A DNA stretch of 64,000 nt from Naegleria gruberi (Eukaryota): assembly GCA_000004985.1 (NCBI GenBank), contig GG738847.1. One strand, written 5' to 3'. Below, piece by piece: positions 10,340-60,095 of the stretch (positions are counted from its first letter, which is position 1; each line of letters starts with the position of its first letter). Below the pieces are notes generated by a model, which made no database searches, was not told the DNA's origin, and saw only the letters and a list, made by a program, of their open reading frames with translations. Position numbers and translations under genes: made by a program.

Positions 10340-10412
10340 GCCGACATAGCTCAGTTGGGAGAGCGTAAGACTGAAGATCTTAAGGTCCCTGGTTCGATCC
10401 CTGGTGTCGGCA
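10340..10412 (+). tRNA. tRNA-Phe (anticodon GAA)
   Basis: GCCGACATAGCTCAGTTGGGAGAGCGTAAGACTGAAGATCTTAAGGTCCCTGGTTCGATCCCTGGTGTCGGCA. It is near-identical to eukaryotic cytosolic tRNA-Phe, with a 7-bp acceptor, a GAA anticodon in CTGAAGA, and a T-run terminator (tttttattt) at 10420-10430. Position 51:63 is a T:T mismatch in the T-stem. Confidence 0.85.
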
Positions 10413-22052: not shown

Positions 22053-22343
22053 ATGGCCACAACAAACAGCCAGAGAGTACAAAAGTCTCGTAATTTCAGG
22101 AAATTTTCTAAAAGGTTCTTCCAACAAAGTAAGAACAACGTTGTTTCTCTTTCTATTCACAAAGAGGTAGCAAGTGTTGAACAACAGAATCCTTCCACTC
22201 CACCGATAACTAAATCATCAAATATTANNNNNNNNNNNNNNNNNNNNNNNNNNNNNNNNNNNNNNNNNNNNNNNNNNAGTAAGTTTACTCTTATTATTAA
22301 TTATTGATTATTTATTTATTAGTGATGAGGATGATACTCATTA
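22053..22343 (+). CDS. small hypothetical ORF spanning an N-gap, possibly with a short terminal exon
   Basis: ORF from ATG 22053 runs into the N-gap at 22229-22277. Past the gap, a GTAAGT follows at 22279 and an acceptor ttattag at ~22320. Very uncertain. Confidence 0.2.
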
Positions 22344-41155: not shown

Positions 41156-41660
41156 TGAATTCTTCCATCCAATGTACTTTTATGATCATGATGATTATAT
41201 GTATACTTAATTGTATTGTTATTACNNNNNNNNNNNNNNNNNNNNNNNNNNNNNNNNNNNNNNNNNNNNNNNNNNNNNNNNNNNNNNNNNNNNNNNNNNN
41301 NNNNNNNNNNNNNNNNNNNNNNNNNNNNNNNNNNNNNNNNNNNNNNNNNNNNNNNNNNNNNNNNNNNNNNNNNNNNNNNNNNNNNNNNNNNNNNNNNNNN
41401 NNNNNNNNNNNNNNNNNNNNNNNNNNNNNNNNNNNNNNNNNNNNNNNNNNNNNNNNNNNNNNNNNNNNNNNNNNNNNNNNNNNNNNNNNNNNNNNNNNNN
41501 NNNNNTCCAACATACACACTCCTCAAAGATAAAATATCTTAATCACTCCCAATTTTAATCAATGATTATTATCCACACTGTACTACTACTACTACTTGAA
41601 GAGATTACCATTAAATTAAATAATATTAATATATTCAATTATAAAATTCAATTAAAAAAA

Positions 41661-44052: not shown

Positions 44053-46097
44053 TTCATTTTTTTTCAATTTTACCTTTTATTGTGTGAATGAATACTAAAA
44101 TGGCCATTCAATTAGATGAGTTTAAAACACAATTATTGCCTTTATCATATTATTATATTGAAATTACAATGAAAGTTAATTAAATATGTAATTTTTCATG
44201 ATATTATCTTTCATTGTGAGAATGGATCCATAATTATAGATATTCAATACATTTAATACTTCCTATATTAAAATAAATAATAATAATGAAACAATAATAA
44301 TAAATTAAATTTTTAAATAAACATAGGATAGAGTTTGTATTAATAAAAGTTTATTTAATATTTTTAATTTTATATTTAATTGAATAACTTTTAATTAAAC
44401 TTAATTTTTGTTTATTAAAATTAATTACATAAACAATTTTCATAATACAATAAATTAAATACAATATTTTAAATTCAATTAATTTTTTTCCTTTTTCATA
44501 TAAAATTCAACCAAGAATATTTATTATAATGAATATAATTACCCTCTATTAATTTATAATTTAAATTATTTAAATAAATATCATTATTCTTTAAAGTACT
44601 ATTAATAATATTTAGTTTATTATCATTTAAACTACTAATAAGTATTTTTATAGGCATTAATATTTTACATTATTAATGTATTTTAAATAGACTTGTTGAT
44701 TATGATTTTATAAATAATTAGTTTAAATTTAATTATAAATGTTCGATAATATATTTTGTACAATTACAATTAGGTATTATCTGCTAATAATAAATCTATC
44801 CTGGATTCCATTAAGAATATTTAATTTTAATTAACATGTATTAATATTAGCATGTTTCAATTTGCAAAAATTTATGCCATTAAGTTTGCTCAAGAACTGA
44901 ATTCAGTGATCGGAACAGATATTACTAACCTTCTCAACTAAGTTTTATGAAGGAACGAAGCATTGTTGTTATGACAACTTTTACCATGAGCTGATTGTTG
45001 TATATGGTTTATTAACAAAAATACTTAGGCTAAGACGGTTACATTATTGTATTTCTACAACTGCGGTACATAACCAAAACTCAATAAATGTAGATGAACA
45101 CTACCATTGAGTAAATAGCTAGGTACGGTAGTTGCTAATACCATAGAATCATAGAATAATATAGTATACAGTACTATCAGTACTATACATCTCAATATAT
45201 GTCATCGTAACTATTTTCTGTTGAATTACACTTACGTTGATCACGGTTACAATGTATAATTGATTGATCGAACGGTACAAAGAATACAACAATATTTTCA
45301 TTGAGAATAGATTTTAATTCATACCTCATTATCTGAAGCACTTCTACATAGTACATGATGTTAATTAATTGGTGCCGAAGAGGAAACAACACAAGGATCA
45401 CCAACACCTCAAAATGAGAACAAAATTCTCCTGGTAATACTGACAACGGAGAGGAACCAGAAGATGACGAGGCAGGGTTTAGGCCATATATCCTAATCAT
45501 TAAATGAATCTATTGTACAACAAACATTAAATGATTGCGTGTAGACGATTTACCATTAATAGAAGTGCCACTTTATTATTTGAATCTGATTAGTGTATNN
45601 NNNNNNNNNNNNNNNNNNNNNNNNNNNNNNNNNNNNNNNNNNNNNNNNNNNNNNNNNNNNNNNNNNNNNNNNNNNNNNNNNNNNNNNNNNNNNNNNNNNN
45701 NNNNNNNNNNNNNNNNNNNNNNNNNNNNNNNNNNNNNNNNNNNNNNNNNNNNNNNNNNNNNNNNNNNNNNNNNNNNNNNNNNNNNNNNNNNNNNNNNNNN
45801 NNNNNNNNNNNNNNNNNNNNNNNNNNNNNNNNNNNNNNNNNNNNNNNNNNNNNNNNNNNNNNNNNNNNNNNNNNNNNNNNNNNNNNNNNNNNNNNNNNNN
45901 NNNNNNNNNNNNNNNNNNNNNNNNNNNNNNNNNNNNNNNNNNNNNNNNNNNNNNNNNNNNNNNNNNNNNNNNNNNNNNNNNNNNNNNNATTAATATGAAC
46001 AATTGCATGTAATGCCCATGCATCTACATACGAAATATTCTGGAAGACAATTTATCATCGATACGTCATTACTAATATTATTGAAAAATATCAAAAG

Positions 46098-48074: not shown

Positions 48075-49791
48075 TTGCTAGAGTCAGTGGCTTTGACAAC
48101 AATAACCACCACACACAACAATAATAATACTAATACCAATACTAATAATAATATTAACAATAACAATATTAACAATAATACTCATTGTCTTCCCAATGAC
48201 ATGTTAATAATAATATTTCAATTTCTCAATCAACAAGATTTTATTATAATGTCACTTGTTTGTAAATATTGGAGATTTGTTGGTCAACAACCATTCCGAA
48301 AGGAATTTACAAATTACAAATTATACCCCTCTTATTCAATGATTACTCCAACATTTATTACCAATTCATTTGAATTTTTTAATTTCTTTTCTTCCATAAC
48401 ATGCTATTTATTTAATACAGTACCTAAATCAACATTTAAAACTATTTTACTCTCTCAGAAATTACAAAGTTTATTTGTAGATTCTTGTTGTTTGGTTAAA
48501 AATATAATACCATTCCATTCAATGATAAAAAAACATTCCTCCAATAATATCACTGAATTGGGATTAAATTATAAAATGAAAAAGAAAGATTTACGTGCTC
48601 TATTTCAAGTACTTCCAAATTTGAAACATTTAAGTTTAGGAATGGGAGCAACAGAATGTTTAATTAGTACAGAATCATTTCTTAGTACATGTTGTCATAA
48701 ATTAGAATCACTCCATTTACAATTATTACCTGAAAATCATAAAAATATTGTAAAATTATTAAATGGAATATTTAATCCATCACTTTCAACAACAACAACA
48801 ATATCCAATCTCATTGATATTAGAATATTTATAACAGAATCTTATTCAATTAATAGAAAATTAATTTTACATTTGATTTTAATTCATTTCCATATTTAAA
48901 ATATTTATTTCTTGATATTACCTATATTTATACATTAGAATCAATTAGTAATGTATTATTAAATTCAACTAATATTTCAAAATTAATAGAATTTGGATTT
49001 GGAACTGTTAGAAAATCTATTGAAAAATTACATTTTAAAAATAGTGAAAATTTAAAAAATTTAAAAAAATTATTTTTAAATAGAACAGAAATGATGACAA
49101 ATATAGATAATCTTCCTTCATTAGAATTATTATATATAGATGAACATGAAAAAAAACATTGTTCCACTAAAAATTATTCAAAACCATGGAATTTAGCATT
49201 NNNNNNNNNNNNNNNNNNNNNNNNNNNNNNNNNNNNNNNNNNNNNNNNNNATTTTTGTTTTGATCTTACCATAATTTAGATTTATCTGAATTGAGTCAAT
49301 TAAATTTAGAAATATTAATTCTTAGAATTCCTGTCGAAAATTATAGGATATTTCATCACATTTCTAAAATATTAACATTGAGAGAATTAACATTTCATTC
49401 TCATAATATTTATGCAACTGATTTGAAATTACTTTGTAAATTACCAAATTTAGAATATCTTTACATTAGATTGGAACATAAAAGTGAAACATCTTTTACT
49501 TTTAATTCACTAACTACACTTTCAATTTATTCAGATAATTTGAAACAATTAAATTTCTTTCAAATATCAAATTTACCAAAATTGAAAACTTTAATGGTTC
49601 GTAATAATCGGGATAATAACCATAAATGGTGGTTGCAACCATTATTTCCAAATTTACAAATACTTGTTGCCAACAATACAGGAACATTTTTAGCATCTCC
49701 ATATAATGATGGTATGAATTTTGGTGCGTGTGATATTTTGCAAAGAATAACAAATTATGAATATGTAGCCCACTTTCCAAAAAAATTTTGA
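48075..49791 (+). CDS. F-box / leucine-rich-repeat protein; spans the N-gap at 49201-49250; 5' exon not located
   Basis: F-box LPNDMLIIIFQFLNQQDFIIMSLVCKYWRFV is followed by LRR-like repeats up to 49791. Track start 48075 is TTG; a ttttcag acceptor at ~48069 suggests an upstream exon. Confidence 0.55.
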
Positions 49792-54644: not shown

Positions 54645-56918
54645 ATGCAATCATGCAAAACACATTTCCCGCCATTTTTTGTACAATTTATTCAAAGTAA
54701 AAAAATGTCCTCCAACAATCCACGTGGATTCAATCAACAACAAAACATTAATAGGAGAGAATTATCATTCAATGTTGTTGGAGTTGGAAAACAAAACTCA
54801 AATACATCAACTAATACAACTTCAAATGGTGGTTCATCTTCTCCTACCACTAATTCTACAACAAATAATGTTGTTACTTCTACAACCAATAGTAAGCCTT
54901 CAAATACATCACCTAAATCATCAAAATCATCTTCATCATCAGCCAATAGTACAAGTAGTCAGAGACAAGCTAACAATGCACCAATTAAAAGTAGTACACC
55001 ACTCACAAAACAATCCTCTGGAACACAACTCACTACTCGAAGTGGAGTTGAAAGTTCTTCCTCTTCTGCTGCTATCAGTAAGAGATTGACTAGTGCTGCC
55101 ACAACAGTTAGTAGTACAACAAGTAACTCAATCAAATCAACAAGTTCATCCATTGCACTCTCATCTGCTTCATCTTCATCAAATCTTCTTCAAACAGTTC
55201 TAAGTAAGGAAGAAGAGGCTGAACTAATTAAAGAATTGTGTGGCGAAGAAATGTACCTATTATTAATATCAAGTAAACATCAAGAAAGAGAAGAATTTCT
55301 AACACGTTTAAATGTATGGATTAATCAATCATCTAATTTACCACATGGATTTATGATTTTTCCAAGTGTAAATTTACCAATTGAAAAGACAAGAGTATTA
55401 AAAGTACTTGCTATTATTCTAAGAATGACACTAGTTGATAAAATTATTAAAATAGTGCAATTAGCATATTCAACATGTATTTTATTAGTTGAATCAGCAC
55501 CAGTACAACAAGCAAAGAATATAACACATTTAAAAGAAGGTCTTTCACAAATATTACCATTATTGATGACTAAAGTAATTGATTCAAATGAAAGAAACTC
55601 TAAGAGTGCTATACAAGCAGTAACAAAAATGTCAACAGTTAAAGTAATTTCTAAATTAGTATTTAATTATGCATTACTATCAATTAATTCAGGTAAACCA
55701 TTATCACCTAAAGCTATTCAAGGTAGAATTTCACTTGTAGAATCACTTGTTTTAAAACATGGATTGAATAATAGTAGTTTAGAAGTTTCAATTCAATTTT
55801 TAGATTTTTTAAATGAATGTTTAACACATAAAACAGTTCAAGTTAAAGATTCATGTATTGAGTTATTAGCAATAATGCATAAATCAATGGGAAAGGAATT
55901 ATTTGATTTAAATGTAATGGATAAATTACCTTCAAAAACATCAACACTTGTACAAAAATTAGAAATTAAAATTAGAGCTAAAAAACAAGAAGAAATTGAA
56001 GAAGAAAAAAAGAAGGAAGAATTAAAAAATCAAAAAACACAAAATGAAACTAATATAGTATTTAAACAAGGTGATATATCGAGAGAATTAATAATGAAAA
56101 AATCACTTAAAAAAATTCAATCAGGTGAATCAATTCGATCATTTTTAAAATCACTAACACATTTACATTTTGATTCATGTAATATTTCTAAAATTATTAA
56201 TTTAGAACATTGTCCAAATTTAAGAGTTTTATATTTATATGATAATAGAATTACTAAAATAGAAGGATTAAATAATAACAAACAATTAATACATTTACAT
56301 TTACATCACAATTTAATTGAAAAAATTGAAGGATTGGATGAATTGGTTAATTTACAACAATTATATTTAAATAATAATAGAATTAAAATTGTTGAAAATT
56401 TAACAAAATTACAAAAACTACAAGAATTACATTTACAACAACAAGATATTGAAAATTCAATGATTTTAGATTCAGATTCAATGAAATCACTTTCAAATTC
56501 ATTAACTTTATTGGATTTAAGTAATAACAAGATTGAAGATTCACTTTCTATTGGATTTTTAGAAAATTTAATTGAATTGGATTTGAGTAAAAACAGAATT
56601 GATAAAATGGATCAAATTTTATTCATTTTAGAAAGTAATAGACAATTACACTCTTTAAATTTAATTGGAAATTCTGTATGCGATTCTTATAAAATGAGAG
56701 ATCAAATCATTGTTTCAAGTAGTTCAGATTTAACTTTATTAAATCAAGTGGAAATTACAGATATTCAGAGAGAATTTTTATTATCATTTGAACATCAAAA
56801 ATTAAAAAGAACATCAAGTGATAATAATGGAATGAATTTGGCTTTACATAATAATAGACAGACAAATAGTAATGAAAATGATCCAAACTTTTTAAAAGAT
56901 TTATTAACAATAAATTAA
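54645..56918 (+). CDS. leucine-rich-repeat protein (SDS22-like LRRs) with an N-terminal Ser/Thr-rich region
   Basis: A 757-aa ORF with in-frame ATGs at 54645 and 54705; the latter has an A-rich Kozak context. The C-terminal half has ~8 SDS22-type LRRs (LRVLYLYDNRITKIEGL, LIHLHLHHNLIEKIEGL, LQQLYLNNNRIKIVENL, …). Confidence 0.6.
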   Translation: MQSCKTHFPPFFVQFIQSKKMSSNNPRGFNQQQNINRRELSFNVVGVGKQNSNTSTNTTSNGGSSSPTTNSTTNNVVTSTTNSKPSNTSPKSSKSSSSSANSTSSQRQANNAPIKSSTPLTKQSSGTQLTTRSGVESSSSSAAISKRLTSAATTVSSTTSNSIKSTSSSIALSSASSSSNLLQTVLSKEEEAELIKELCGEEMYLLLISSKHQEREEFLTRLNVWINQSSNLPHGFMIFPSVNLPIEKTRVLKVLAIILRMTLVDKIIKIVQLAYSTCILLVESAPVQQAKNITHLKEGLSQILPLLMTKVIDSNERNSKSAIQAVTKMSTVKVISKLVFNYALLSINSGKPLSPKAIQGRISLVESLVLKHGLNNSSLEVSIQFLDFLNECLTHKTVQVKDSCIELLAIMHKSMGKELFDLNVMDKLPSKTSTLVQKLEIKIRAKKQEEIEEEKKKEELKNQKTQNETNIVFKQGDISRELIMKKSLKKIQSGESIRSFLKSLTHLHFDSCNISKIINLEHCPNLRVLYLYDNRITKIEGLNNNKQLIHLHLHHNLIEKIEGLDELVNLQQLYLNNNRIKIVENLTKLQKLQELHLQQQDIENSMILDSDSMKSLSNSLTLLDLSNNKIEDSLSIGFLENLIELDLSKNRIDKMDQILFILESNRQLHSLNLIGNSVCDSYKMRDQIIVSSSSDLTLLNQVEITDIQREFLLSFEHQKLKRTSSDNNGMNLALHNNRQTNSNENDPNFLKDLLTIN

Positions 56919-57038: not shown

Positions 57039-57539
57039 TCATTCAAATTCTTTAAAATTCCTTTTCAAATTCTCAATTACCTTCTCTCTCTTGTATGACA
57101 TGTCAACTTTACTCCATGATAATAAAATCGCTTCATATCCACCTGATTCCAATTGTTCCTTCTCATTCAAAATGTAAAGTTGATCTGCTCTCGAGAATTC
57201 TTTCACACCATTCTCAAAAGTACCATAATTAAATTCCTTAACATTTTTAAAATAATCATTCTTGGACCATTGAGTGAATGAATTTCCTTGAAGGAATGCA
57301 ATTCTCTGATTCATTCTGAATTTAAATTCACCTCCACCACCACCATGACGACGACGTTGTTCTGATAGGAATGAACTATTGAGAAAGAGTGATTCTTGAG
57401 AGGAGAGAAGAGATGATGATTTGGAAATGATTGAACTGCCAAGACTTTCCACAAATTTATTACATTCTACGACACTACCACGAAGGCCTACCATAACACA
57501 GATTAAATAGTTGGTATAGAGAAGGTTGGGATTTTGCAT
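57039..57539 (-). CDS. hypothetical small protein
   Basis: A 166-aa ORF with a hydrophobic N-terminus and a Gly5 run. No domain recognised. Confidence 0.3.
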   Translation of the reverse strand: MQNPNLLYTNYLICVMVGLRGSVVECNKFVESLGSSIISKSSSLLSSQESLFLNSSFLSEQRRRHGGGGGEFKFRMNQRIAFLQGNSFTQWSKNDYFKNVKEFNYGTFENGVKEFSRADQLYILNEKEQLESGGYEAILLSWSKVDMSYKREKVIENLKRNFKEFE

Positions 57540-57976
57540 TTTTTTTTAAATTTAGTTGGAATTCAGTCAATTTGAATTTGGAATTGAAATGGAATGTGGA
57601 GAACCAAGTTGTAATGAATTATTGAATATATTTGGATAGTGTGTTGTAAGCATCATCAACTTTCATTTATTAAAAAAATGCAATTTACTTCATCATTGCT
57701 TCTTGTCATAATATTATTATGTTGTTAACACTTTATATTATCAATTAATGGACAATCTCCTCATGTCAATCAGAATCAACAACATTACACTGATACAATT
57801 TATGTGTGGATTTAATTCCAACTCATGGTATGTTTATTAAAAGTATATTCAATAATTATTTAATAATATATTTACAATTTAATATTATTTAAAGGATGAA
57901 GGATGTGAGAGTGTTTTGAAATAATAAGAGATGTAATTCTAATATTGCAATATTTATAAATCAATGTCTTTCCTTT

Positions 57977-58428
57977 GGTAATCAGGATGAGAGTATATTA
58001 ATATCCAATATCTATCCCAAACCGCTTTTTTTGGATATGGCTTTTTAAAAAGGGCAATCTGGTTGAATTTTTACGGGCTTGGCTTTTTGGATAAATCTCA
58101 TCGGATTGGATAATATTATTTGAAAATGTGTCGTGTTTGAGTAATTGTCATTTGTCAACAAGGAATGCAGTCAAATCACTTTACGAATATTAATTAGATT
58201 ATTATCAATACTAATTGCAATAAATCAACATTTTTCGATATAAATTTGGAATATTGTATTTTTTCAAAAGTTTATTTTTTAGTGGAAATTTCTTGACTTA
58301 TTTTTGGCTTTAGTTTTTGGCTTTTTGGTTCAATTTAGCTTTTTGCCGATTTTTTATTCACCAACATCCAAAAAGTGGTTTAGGATGGATACTGGATATT
58401 AATATACTCTCATCAGGATTGGTGTAGT
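57977..58428. repeat. palindromic ~450-bp element bounded by ~45-70-bp imperfect inverted repeats, with internal GGCTTTTTGG repeats (MITE/foldback-like)
   Basis: Left arm at 57977-58024 is aatcaggatgagagtatattaatatccaatatctatcccaaacc. The reverse complement of the right arm at 58381-58428 is aatcctgatgagagtatattaatatccagtatccatcctaaacc, about 90% identical. Similarity extends inward (ccgctttttttggatatgg vs ccactttttggatgttgg). The interior has no ORF. Confidence 0.4.
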
Positions 58429-58604
58429 GGTATAATATTTGGCAATAATCAACATTCATTTTGATTTATTAAGTCCAACAAGTGGTGGTGTATGGATTGG
58501 AATATTTTACGTACATTGTATAATACTTTTGAAATTCAATTAACTACCCAAATTGATTTCTAATATTTCACAAACATAATAGGTTTATACAAGTTCAACA
58601 AAAT

Positions 58605-59999
58605 ATGACAAGCTACTCTGGTACCGATGGTCATAACAAATTTTATTCGTATGACGAAAACTTTATGCCACACCAAAACTATGGAGCATTATTATTCAAT
58701 ACTCTAGAGTTGGGTGTTGAAGTGTTAGTAAAAAGAGTATCTATGAACACAATGAAACACCTTTCGGAGAATGAGATGTCAAAGAAGGATGAACAATTAG
58801 AGAAGTCCTTAGAACTTGCTTTCATTGATGCAAATATCAACAACATACAACCACTAATATCAAATCTACAAGCTCTAGTGAACAATGAGAGTGGTGAGAA
58901 GATATTAGAACTTAATTTGCCCTCCATAACCTCAACATTGAACACAACAAACGATTCTAATTTGAAAAGAATATGTCGTCAGGTATTGGCGTTTTGTTAT
59001 TGTTCTCTTGGTAAATCTGAGGAATTAATTGATACGTGCAACAAGTTGCTTTTGGAAGATTTTACCACTTCCAATTTAATAATAACTAGCCTTTTATTTT
59101 TTGATCTTGGAAATAAGATTAATTCAATTCAATTGCTCAAAGATTCATTCATAATCATTTCGGACGTTAATTTAATATTTCCAAGTGAAGCAGAAAGATT
59201 GATGGTGGCTATTGGTGACCGATTGTTATTAATGATTACTTCTGATTATGAAGATGAATGTGAAGAAACTTTGTTTGCTCAATATGTAGCCAGAAGATTG
59301 TCTACATGTAATACTGCAAGCCCTGTTGTTTATGGTGATGGAACTACTCATGCATTCTTTAATAGAGCTCATAGGCTTTCAAGTATCAGTGAAACAATGT
59401 TATCAAATTTCGATCCTCTAGAACGTGAAGAACGTTATGTTGTGCTTTGCAATGCTATTCACAATTTTAACAGTGTTTTGCAATTGGTTTTAAAAAAACA
59501 ACAAAAAGTTGAGTTTCAAATAAGCTATCCTATTACAACTACCAAATCAGATGTATTTAGTATTAATGCATACAACAATACCTTATCAAGCTTATTTTTA
59601 GAATACTTGCATCCTGATATTCCAATAGCAAAAGCAATTAAGAATTACCATACTCAATTTGCCTCATTATTGACATTGGTGTTTGAAAAAAACGTTAAAA
59701 TAATTCAAGCTGAATTGGAGAAGGAAAAACAAAGTTTAGATTTAAACATCAACAACTCAAAAAGGCTTGAAAAAATTGAACAAATGTTAAATCTTACCAA
59801 ATCACAGAAAGAAAAAGAATATCTTTGTTTGTTTAAGGAAATATGTAACAAACACAACTACCCTCATATTTCTGACGTTCAACGTTATTCCATGTTTCAT
59901 TTAAGCTTAGATGGACCTTTTGTTCCAACAATAGAAGATCCTTATGAACAGTACGATCAATCCGATGATGAAATGGAAAATCTAGAACATGTTCAATAA
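58605..59999 (+). CDS. hypothetical protein
   Basis: A continuous 464-aa ORF with ATG at 58605. No domain recognised. Confidence 0.5.
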   Translation: MTSYSGTDGHNKFYSYDENFMPHQNYGALLFNTLELGVEVLVKRVSMNTMKHLSENEMSKKDEQLEKSLELAFIDANINNIQPLISNLQALVNNESGEKILELNLPSITSTLNTTNDSNLKRICRQVLAFCYCSLGKSEELIDTCNKLLLEDFTTSNLIITSLLFFDLGNKINSIQLLKDSFIIISDVNLIFPSEAERLMVAIGDRLLLMITSDYEDECEETLFAQYVARRLSTCNTASPVVYGDGTTHAFFNRAHRLSSISETMLSNFDPLEREERYVVLCNAIHNFNSVLQLVLKKQQKVEFQISYPITTTKSDVFSINAYNNTLSSLFLEYLHPDIPIAKAIKNYHTQFASLLTLVFEKNVKIIQAELEKEKQSLDLNINNSKRLEKIEQMLNLTKSQKEKEYLCLFKEICNKHNYPHISDVQRYSMFHLSLDGPFVPTIEDPYEQYDQSDDEMENLEHVQ

Positions 60000-60095
60000 C
60001 TTTATTCCAAATAAAAGAAATCGAATTTTCTGCCTCAATAAATTAGATTTCCATAAGAAGATGAAATAATTACCATTTTAAAATTTTAAAAAAAA

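Follow-up and report, generated by a model that had tools for sequence, protein, structure and literature searches.

A 423-bp interval of Naegleria gruberi nuclear DNA, lying in the intergenic region between two divergent genes, is probably a single MITE-like, non-autonomous insertion, and most likely one of the hAT type. The reading is built on a pair of perfect 19-bp terminal inverted repeats (TIRs), on an identical octamer that abuts both of them, and on a cluster of short direct motifs that lies just inside the two ends. The inverted repeat itself (57980-58420) is a real feature; we infer the mobility of the element, its superfamily and the role of its motifs from the DNA sequence. The feature is of an ordinary kind and probably constitutes a new addition to a known class. 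Its parts and its neighbours, numbered by position in the 64-kb window (the whole stretch of DNA that was analysed), are as follows.

57042-57539, minus strand: left neighbouring gene, N. gruberi locus NAEGRDRAFT_62329 (P0122), 166 aa
57981-57988, no strand: left direct repeat ATCAGGAT, candidate target-site duplication (TSD), identical to 58412-58419 and abutting the perfect TIR
57989-58411, no strand: whole proposed element, 423 bp, TIR to TIR
57989-58007, plus strand: left TIR, perfect over 19 bp, GAGAGTATATTAATATCCA, exact reverse complement of 58393-58411
57989-58036, plus strand: left extended arm (TIR and subterminal similarity), aligned, with a gap, to 58366-58411 in reverse complement
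58024-58090, plus strand: left subterminal cluster, G(G)CTTTTT at 58024, 58040 and 58082, with exact GGCTTTTTGG at 58081
58091-58306, no strand: interior, AT-rich, non-palindromic and non-coding, without inverted or direct similarity between its halves
58307-58345, plus strand: right subterminal cluster, G(G)CTTT(TT) at 58307, 58320 and 58338, with exact GGCTTTTTGG at 58319
58366-58411, minus strand: right extended arm, from gapped alignment and repeat search
58393-58411, minus strand: right TIR, perfect over 19 bp, reverse complement of the left TIR
58412-58419, no strand: right direct repeat ATCAGGAT, candidate TSD, identical to the left copy
58605-59999, plus strand: right neighbouring gene, N. 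gruberi locus NAEGRDRAFT_45720, 464 aa

The inverted repeat and its intergenic setting

A repeat search places the arms at 57980-58030 and 58370-58420 (51 nt, 88% complementary, spacing 339 nt), in good agreement with the first-pass annotation, which had described arms of about 45 bp that are about 90% identical and lie 360 bp apart. The same pair is recovered at E = 3.8e-13 when the region is compared with the whole 64-kb window by blastn, and the comparison returns, besides this pair, AT-rich noise alone. It is also the longest inverted repeat in the whole window among those with arms at most 3 kb apart, the remaining ones being low-complexity AT/AAT tracts of 70-85%. The perfect core of the repeat is 22 nt long. 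The window was shuffled 500 times with a first-order Markov model; the longest such core of a shuffle measured 15.3 nt on average and was never longer than 20 nt. Together with the motif count given below, the blastn comparison and the shuffles exclude an origin by chance. The stretch at 40-50 kb, around three N runs, is the most AT-rich of the window (19-23% GC), and its low-complexity AAT/ATT tracts give rise to many spurious inverted repeats. The N runs (assembly gaps) of the window are located at 22228-22277, 41226-41505, 45599-45988 and 49201-49250.

Gapped alignment extends the similarity of the arms inward, pairing 48 nt of the left arm with 46 nt of the right (42 positions match, 4 do not, and there is one gap of 2 nt), and past this alignment there is just one 24-nt stretch at 75%. 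The roughly 25 bp of further inward similarity that had been proposed is present, but weak. Palindromy is confined to the terminal ~48 bp, and the earlier description of a palindromic element holds for this terminal pair but not for the interior, which is unpaired and carries its GCTTT motifs as direct repeats. A single strand of the interval folds with both ends paired (z = -5.8 relative to shuffles) because the ends are inverted repeats, and the fold is thus no independent evidence.

The intergenic space measures 1,065 bp and lies between divergent ORFs at 57039-57539 (minus strand) and 58605-59999 (plus strand), as had been recognized in the description of a space of about 1 kb between two genes. 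A Pfam scan of the two neighbouring genes found no domain in either. Further to the left, the ORF at 54645-56918 encodes a TOG/LRR protein with 100% identity to a Naegleria gruberi predicted protein whose scaffold is 941,567 bp long. The left neighbour has a 97%-identical second version, EFC35264.1 (NAEGRDRAFT_77082), in which two residues are substituted and a Gly run is shorter by 3 aa. The gene for it lies on a scaffold of 1,261 bp, which belongs to the N. gruberi assembly of the window and may extend to the insertion site; it probably represents the second haplotype of the left neighbour gene. On the right side, positions 1-1469 of an ENA metagenome contig (L001; ERZ929261, PRJEB11402) correspond to window positions 58546-60031 at 97.6% DNA identity. 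This identity to the right neighbour gene indicates that the environmental sample contains a close relative of N. gruberi NEG-M; the contig ends 127 bp short of the element. In Willaertia magna, the locus of the TOG/LRR ortholog has different downstream genes, and there is therefore no comparable intergenic region at that locus.

Two minor features are located in the same intergenic space, to the left of the element. A second AT-rich inverted repeat (57612-57633/57841-57862; 22 nt, 86%, arms 207 nt apart) is probably a chance structure, since its 14-nt perfect core is within the range of the shuffles (mean maximum 15.3). At 57648-57701 on the minus strand, about 280 bp left of the element, there are matches resembling C/D-box snoRNAs (SNORD16, SNORD61, snoU83, snoR116), which are sub-threshold (19-22 bits, E 0.9-3.5). 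An ATGATGA box is present at the 5' side of this stretch, and its termini form an AGC/GCT stem, but a clean CTGA D box is lacking.

Direct repeats at the ends and motifs inside the element

The octamer ATCAGGAT occurs on the same strand in both flanks, directly outside the perfect TIRs, and a match of 9 bp fails. The search for target-site duplications at the element ends that the first-pass annotation had suggested thus yields an identical 8-bp sequence at 57981-57988 and 58412-58419. The 500 shuffles were examined in the same way, with a boundary that could be shifted inward by 0-4 nt at every inverted-repeat core; 15 of 28,815 cores (~5e-4 per core) proved to be flanked by direct repeats of at least 8 bp. 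The real window has 92 cores, for which ~0.05 with such a flanking repeat would be expected; one is seen, and it is the top-ranked repeat.

The octamer is partly palindromic (ATC..GAT), which allows six of the eight positions to be counted as part of an inverted repeat that is prolonged outward across two central mismatches. This double reading is the reason why both the first-pass annotation and the repeat search placed the arm ends at 57980/58420. A model with an 8-bp TSD is estimated by hand to be ~200 times likelier than an arm that extends outward with two mismatches and has no TSD. The 8-bp duplication, which is seen in one copy of the element, is the favoured reading of the ends but is not proven. 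An allele with the corresponding empty site would read CCTTTGGTAATCAGGATTGGTGTAGTGG, with a single ATCAGGAT and without the element.

Within the element, six GCTTT cores are located at 58024, 58040, 58082, 58307, 58320 and 58338, all on the plus strand and none on the minus strand, where 0.29 would be expected on each strand of a 423-bp stretch (Poisson P ~7e-7). Stretches of this length elsewhere in the window all contain fewer. The cores are direct repeats and lie ~35-105 bp from the element ends. Exact motif counts are three for GGCTTTTT, two for GGCTTTTTGG and five for GCTTTTT, and the two copies of GGCTTTTTGG are the only ones in the window. The earlier count of at least six copies of GGCTTTTT(G) is accordingly borne out at the level of the six GCTTT cores, but the exact GGCTTTTT is present just three times. 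The left cluster includes an 18-nt direct repeat, TTGGCTTTTTGGATAAAT, which has an 89% match to 58317-58334. A near-perfect palindrome of 17-18 nt, GGCTTTTTAAAAAGGGC, is found in the left subterminal region (58038-58055), where two motifs of the GGCTTTTT type stand head to head; the right end of the element has no counterpart of it. The GC content of the element is 28.6%, that of the flanking intergenic DNA 23.8% and 26.5%.

Searches for further copies covered the window and several sequence collections. The TIR GAGAGTATATTAATATCCA has no other occurrence in the 64-kb window with up to three mismatches, and neither the arm nor the interior occurs a second time there. The collections do not contain the N. 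gruberi genome. Among JGI metagenome contigs, the 22-mer has one match, which lies within a gene for NAD-dependent DNA ligase and is a chance match; in bacterial and archaeal genomes, a first scan found no match and a second one two bacterial matches of 19-mers, with ~4 expected by chance in 596 Gb; and viral contigs gave 0 matches. The 20 large ORFs of the window were scanned with Pfam, and none has a transposase domain. Elements of the hAT superfamily are mobilised by a transposase that combines BED and hAT dimerisation domains, and a gene of this type was likewise absent from the window.

This singularity suits a different account, in which a non-mobile inverted duplication of ~50 bp, arising for instance when replication or repair switched templates, serves as a symmetric regulatory module or is neutral. 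We regard this account as rather unlikely, although several observations are in keeping with it. The element is single-copy in everything searched (the window, and the collections without the N. gruberi genome), and N. gruberi has very little recognisable transposon DNA, being very poor in recognisable transposons (0.28%) in one RepeatMasker-based survey (bioRxiv 10.64898/2026.06.24.734286). The element also sits exactly between the two divergent ORFs. In the regulatory variant of this account, which the first-pass annotation had also raised, each arm would face one gene, at a distance to its ATG of ~440 bp for the left arm (ATG at 57539) and ~185 bp for the right arm (ATG at 58605), and the GGCTTTTT repeats would be putative factor-binding sites; the motif cluster is strongly non-random and suits binding sites of any kind. 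However, an inverted duplication alone makes no identical 8-bp direct repeat abutting perfect arms. A regulatory role is further disfavoured by the absence of the arm motifs and of GGCTTTTTGG from other intergenic regions of the window, and by the flanking proteins, which are unrelated and show no link in their regulation. Upstream of other genes of the window the sub-motifs of the arms are not found again, so that they do not represent a promoter motif in common use there.

Boundaries and class of the proposed insertion

If the interval is a mobile element, its boundaries may be drawn differently, or it may be a member of a superfamily with 8-bp TSDs other than hAT; both possibilities, taken together, are improbable. 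With other boundaries, the element would be 441 bp long (57980-58420), with imperfect 51-bp TIRs starting AATCAGGATGAG / AATCCTGATGAG and a duplication of GGT (57977-57979 and 58421-58423). GGT is indeed present on both sides of the 51-nt arms, and the arms given by the repeat search take in AATC/GATT. Against this, a 3-bp match arises by chance in about 1 of 40 cases, and the two arm 'mismatches' (AG versus AG on the same strand) are precisely what perfects the octamer direct repeat, a coincidence that would be expected ~1 time in 9 for random substitutions affecting an inverted repeat. Moreover, GGT does not fit the TWA duplication of Harbinger/Chapaev-type elements (PMC3014272), and neither end begins with CAC/CACTA. 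By a hand estimate, the 8-bp-TSD model is ~5-10 times likelier than arms reaching 57980/58420 with GGT as a 3-bp TSD.

With the 8-bp duplication retained, the superfamilies considered besides hAT, from their TSD lengths, were P, Merlin and Mutator-like. The first base of the TIR, G, is atypical for hAT, and TIRs starting GAGA are typical of Mutator-like elements. Mutator-like elements, however, usually make duplications of 9-11 bp, and at the ends of this element a 9-bp match fails.

The preferred reading, that of a MITE-like and probably hAT-type insertion, can be compared with published descriptions of both groups. MITEs are characterized in general as short, non-coding sequences that have TIRs and an AT-rich interior and that adjoin genes (PMC3942097), and the present element largely answers this description. 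Its 423 bp are well within the usual size of less than ~800 bp, and it is non-coding: its longest internal ORFs, of 32-38 aa, give no Pfam match at E <= 1, and no remnant of a coding sequence was found, so that the earlier statement that the interior has no ORF stands. Its TIRs, perfect over 19 bp and extending to ~48 bp with 42/46 matches, are beyond all 500 shuffles. The 8-bp ATCAGGAT provides a candidate TSD, with the proviso that this octamer, being partly palindromic, overlaps the alternative reading of the arms.

For hAT elements, the hallmarks are 8-bp TSDs and TIRs of 10-25 bp (PMC3942097; PMC3014272), to which the 8-bp ATCAGGAT and the 19-bp TIRs correspond. Transposons of this superfamily also require subterminal repeats beyond the TIR, which are bound by the BED domain of the transposase, and in the hAT element Hermes these repeats are placed asymmetrically at the two ends (PMC10368747). 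The six GCTTT cores occupy such a subterminal position, and a requirement for them in cis is putative. Hermes makes an 8-bp duplication with the target preference 5'-nTnnnnAn-3' (PMC10368747), and ATCAGGAT fits this pattern, in that its second base is T and its seventh A, although as a single site it lends weak support. The terminal motif of hAT elements is YARNG (PMC3014272). The present ends read GAGAG, in which positions 2-5 fit the motif and position 1 is G instead of C/T; for this reason the element is termed hAT-like and is not filed as a member of hAT.

The closest known elements are MITEs of the hAT superfamily, for example Mar and the BuT2-derived MITEs of Drosophila and the non-autonomous hAT-N families of Anolis, which are likewise a few hundred base pairs long and non-coding. 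In common with hAT MITEs, the element has short perfect TIRs, an 8-bp flanking duplication, subterminal repeats and a location adjoining genes. It differs from them in its terminal pentamer (GAGAG here, YARNG there), in its occurrence as one copy in the 64-kb window with no autonomous partner in that window, and in its host, a heterolobosean amoeba. Hermes/Ac-type hAT elements share with it the nTnnnnAn target with an 8-bp duplication, and the short motifs of the element, which occupy ~100 bp inside each end and are differently arranged at the two ends, resemble the BED-domain-bound subterminal repeats of Hermes; the same-strand arrangement of GGCTTTTT matches this asymmetry of the Hermes subterminal repeats. 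Unlike Hermes/Ac, the element has no transposase gene, and GGCTTTTT is unrelated to the AAGT/AAGC motif of Hermes, so that transposase binding at GGCTTTTT is put forward purely by inference.

The first-pass annotation had offered a MITE or a foldback-type transposon as the likely class. The MITE half of this proposal agrees with the perfect 19-bp TIRs and the 8-bp repeat; the foldback half is not supported, as the arms are short, the interior has no inverted similarity, and the GCTTT motifs are direct repeats on one strand. Foldback elements, and likewise Tdd, DDT and thug, have TIRs and the absence of an ORF in common with the element, but the arms here make up ~48-51 bp of 423 bp and are without tandem subrepeats, and the interior is not palindromic. 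A comparison with the dictyostelid families Tdd, DDT and thug, which had also been proposed, has no basis, since the host is Naegleria gruberi and both neighbours are N. gruberi loci. The sequence ATCCCAAACC in the arms, which we take to resemble the DUSE-type small-RNA promoter of Dictyostelium, was dropped as a candidate promoter because the host is Naegleria and the motif does not recur in the window.

Proposed origin and implications

In the mechanism proposed for the insertion, the inverted ends would have been recognised by a transposase whose gene lies at another place in the genome and which most likely belongs to the hAT superfamily. The same transposase probably bound the subterminal GGCTTTTT repeats, by analogy with the BED domains of hAT transposases. 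It would then have cut the element out and inserted it at the target ATCAGGAT by way of an 8-bp stagger, whose repair would have left the octamer on both sides. On this model the element either lost its own transposase gene or never had one.

It is a good deal more doubtful whether the element belongs to a recently active, undescribed family of hAT-like MITEs of N. gruberi in which the GGCTTTTT subterminal repeats are transposase-binding sites. Descriptions of MITEs or hAT elements in Naegleria were not found in a literature search, which was incomplete and did not extend to Repbase. If such a family were recently active, the fact that the 19-bp ends are perfect and the 8-bp duplication is intact would point to an insertion of young age and to a transposase that still functions somewhere in the genome. 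An active family would also represent an endogenous cut-and-paste system, and thereby a lead for insertional mutagenesis in Naegleria, which lacks good genetic tools. In that case the insertion might, in addition, have rewired the upstream region that the two genes share.

Confirmation of the element as a transposon would add a small DNA-transposon family to a genome with ~0.28% recognisable transposable elements, and would point to a hAT-like transposase in a heterolobosean, which would be useful for repeat annotation. A lone MITE-like insertion in an intergenic region is otherwise routine genome content, which would not surprise a specialist and opens no long-standing question.

A structured RNA is a very improbable alternative, whether the interval is taken for a long hairpin from which small RNAs are processed or its interior for the gene of a small RNA. 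The fold with paired ends (z = -5.8) and the weak snoRNA-like Rfam matches at 58138-58237 on the minus strand speak for it, but the inverted ends explain the fold score trivially, a stem of ~48 bp with a loop of ~330 nt does not resemble a hairpin RNA, the Rfam matches, the best in the interior, have E values of ~5-8 and are far under the gathering scores, and no tRNA was found, the reconstituted empty site included. A tRNA or tRNA-like target for the insertion was likewise considered and rejected, since the empty site reconstituted in silico contains none. Elsewhere in the window, a tRNA-Phe (GAA) gene at 10340-10412 on the plus strand is the sole Rfam/ARAGORN match at curated thresholds.
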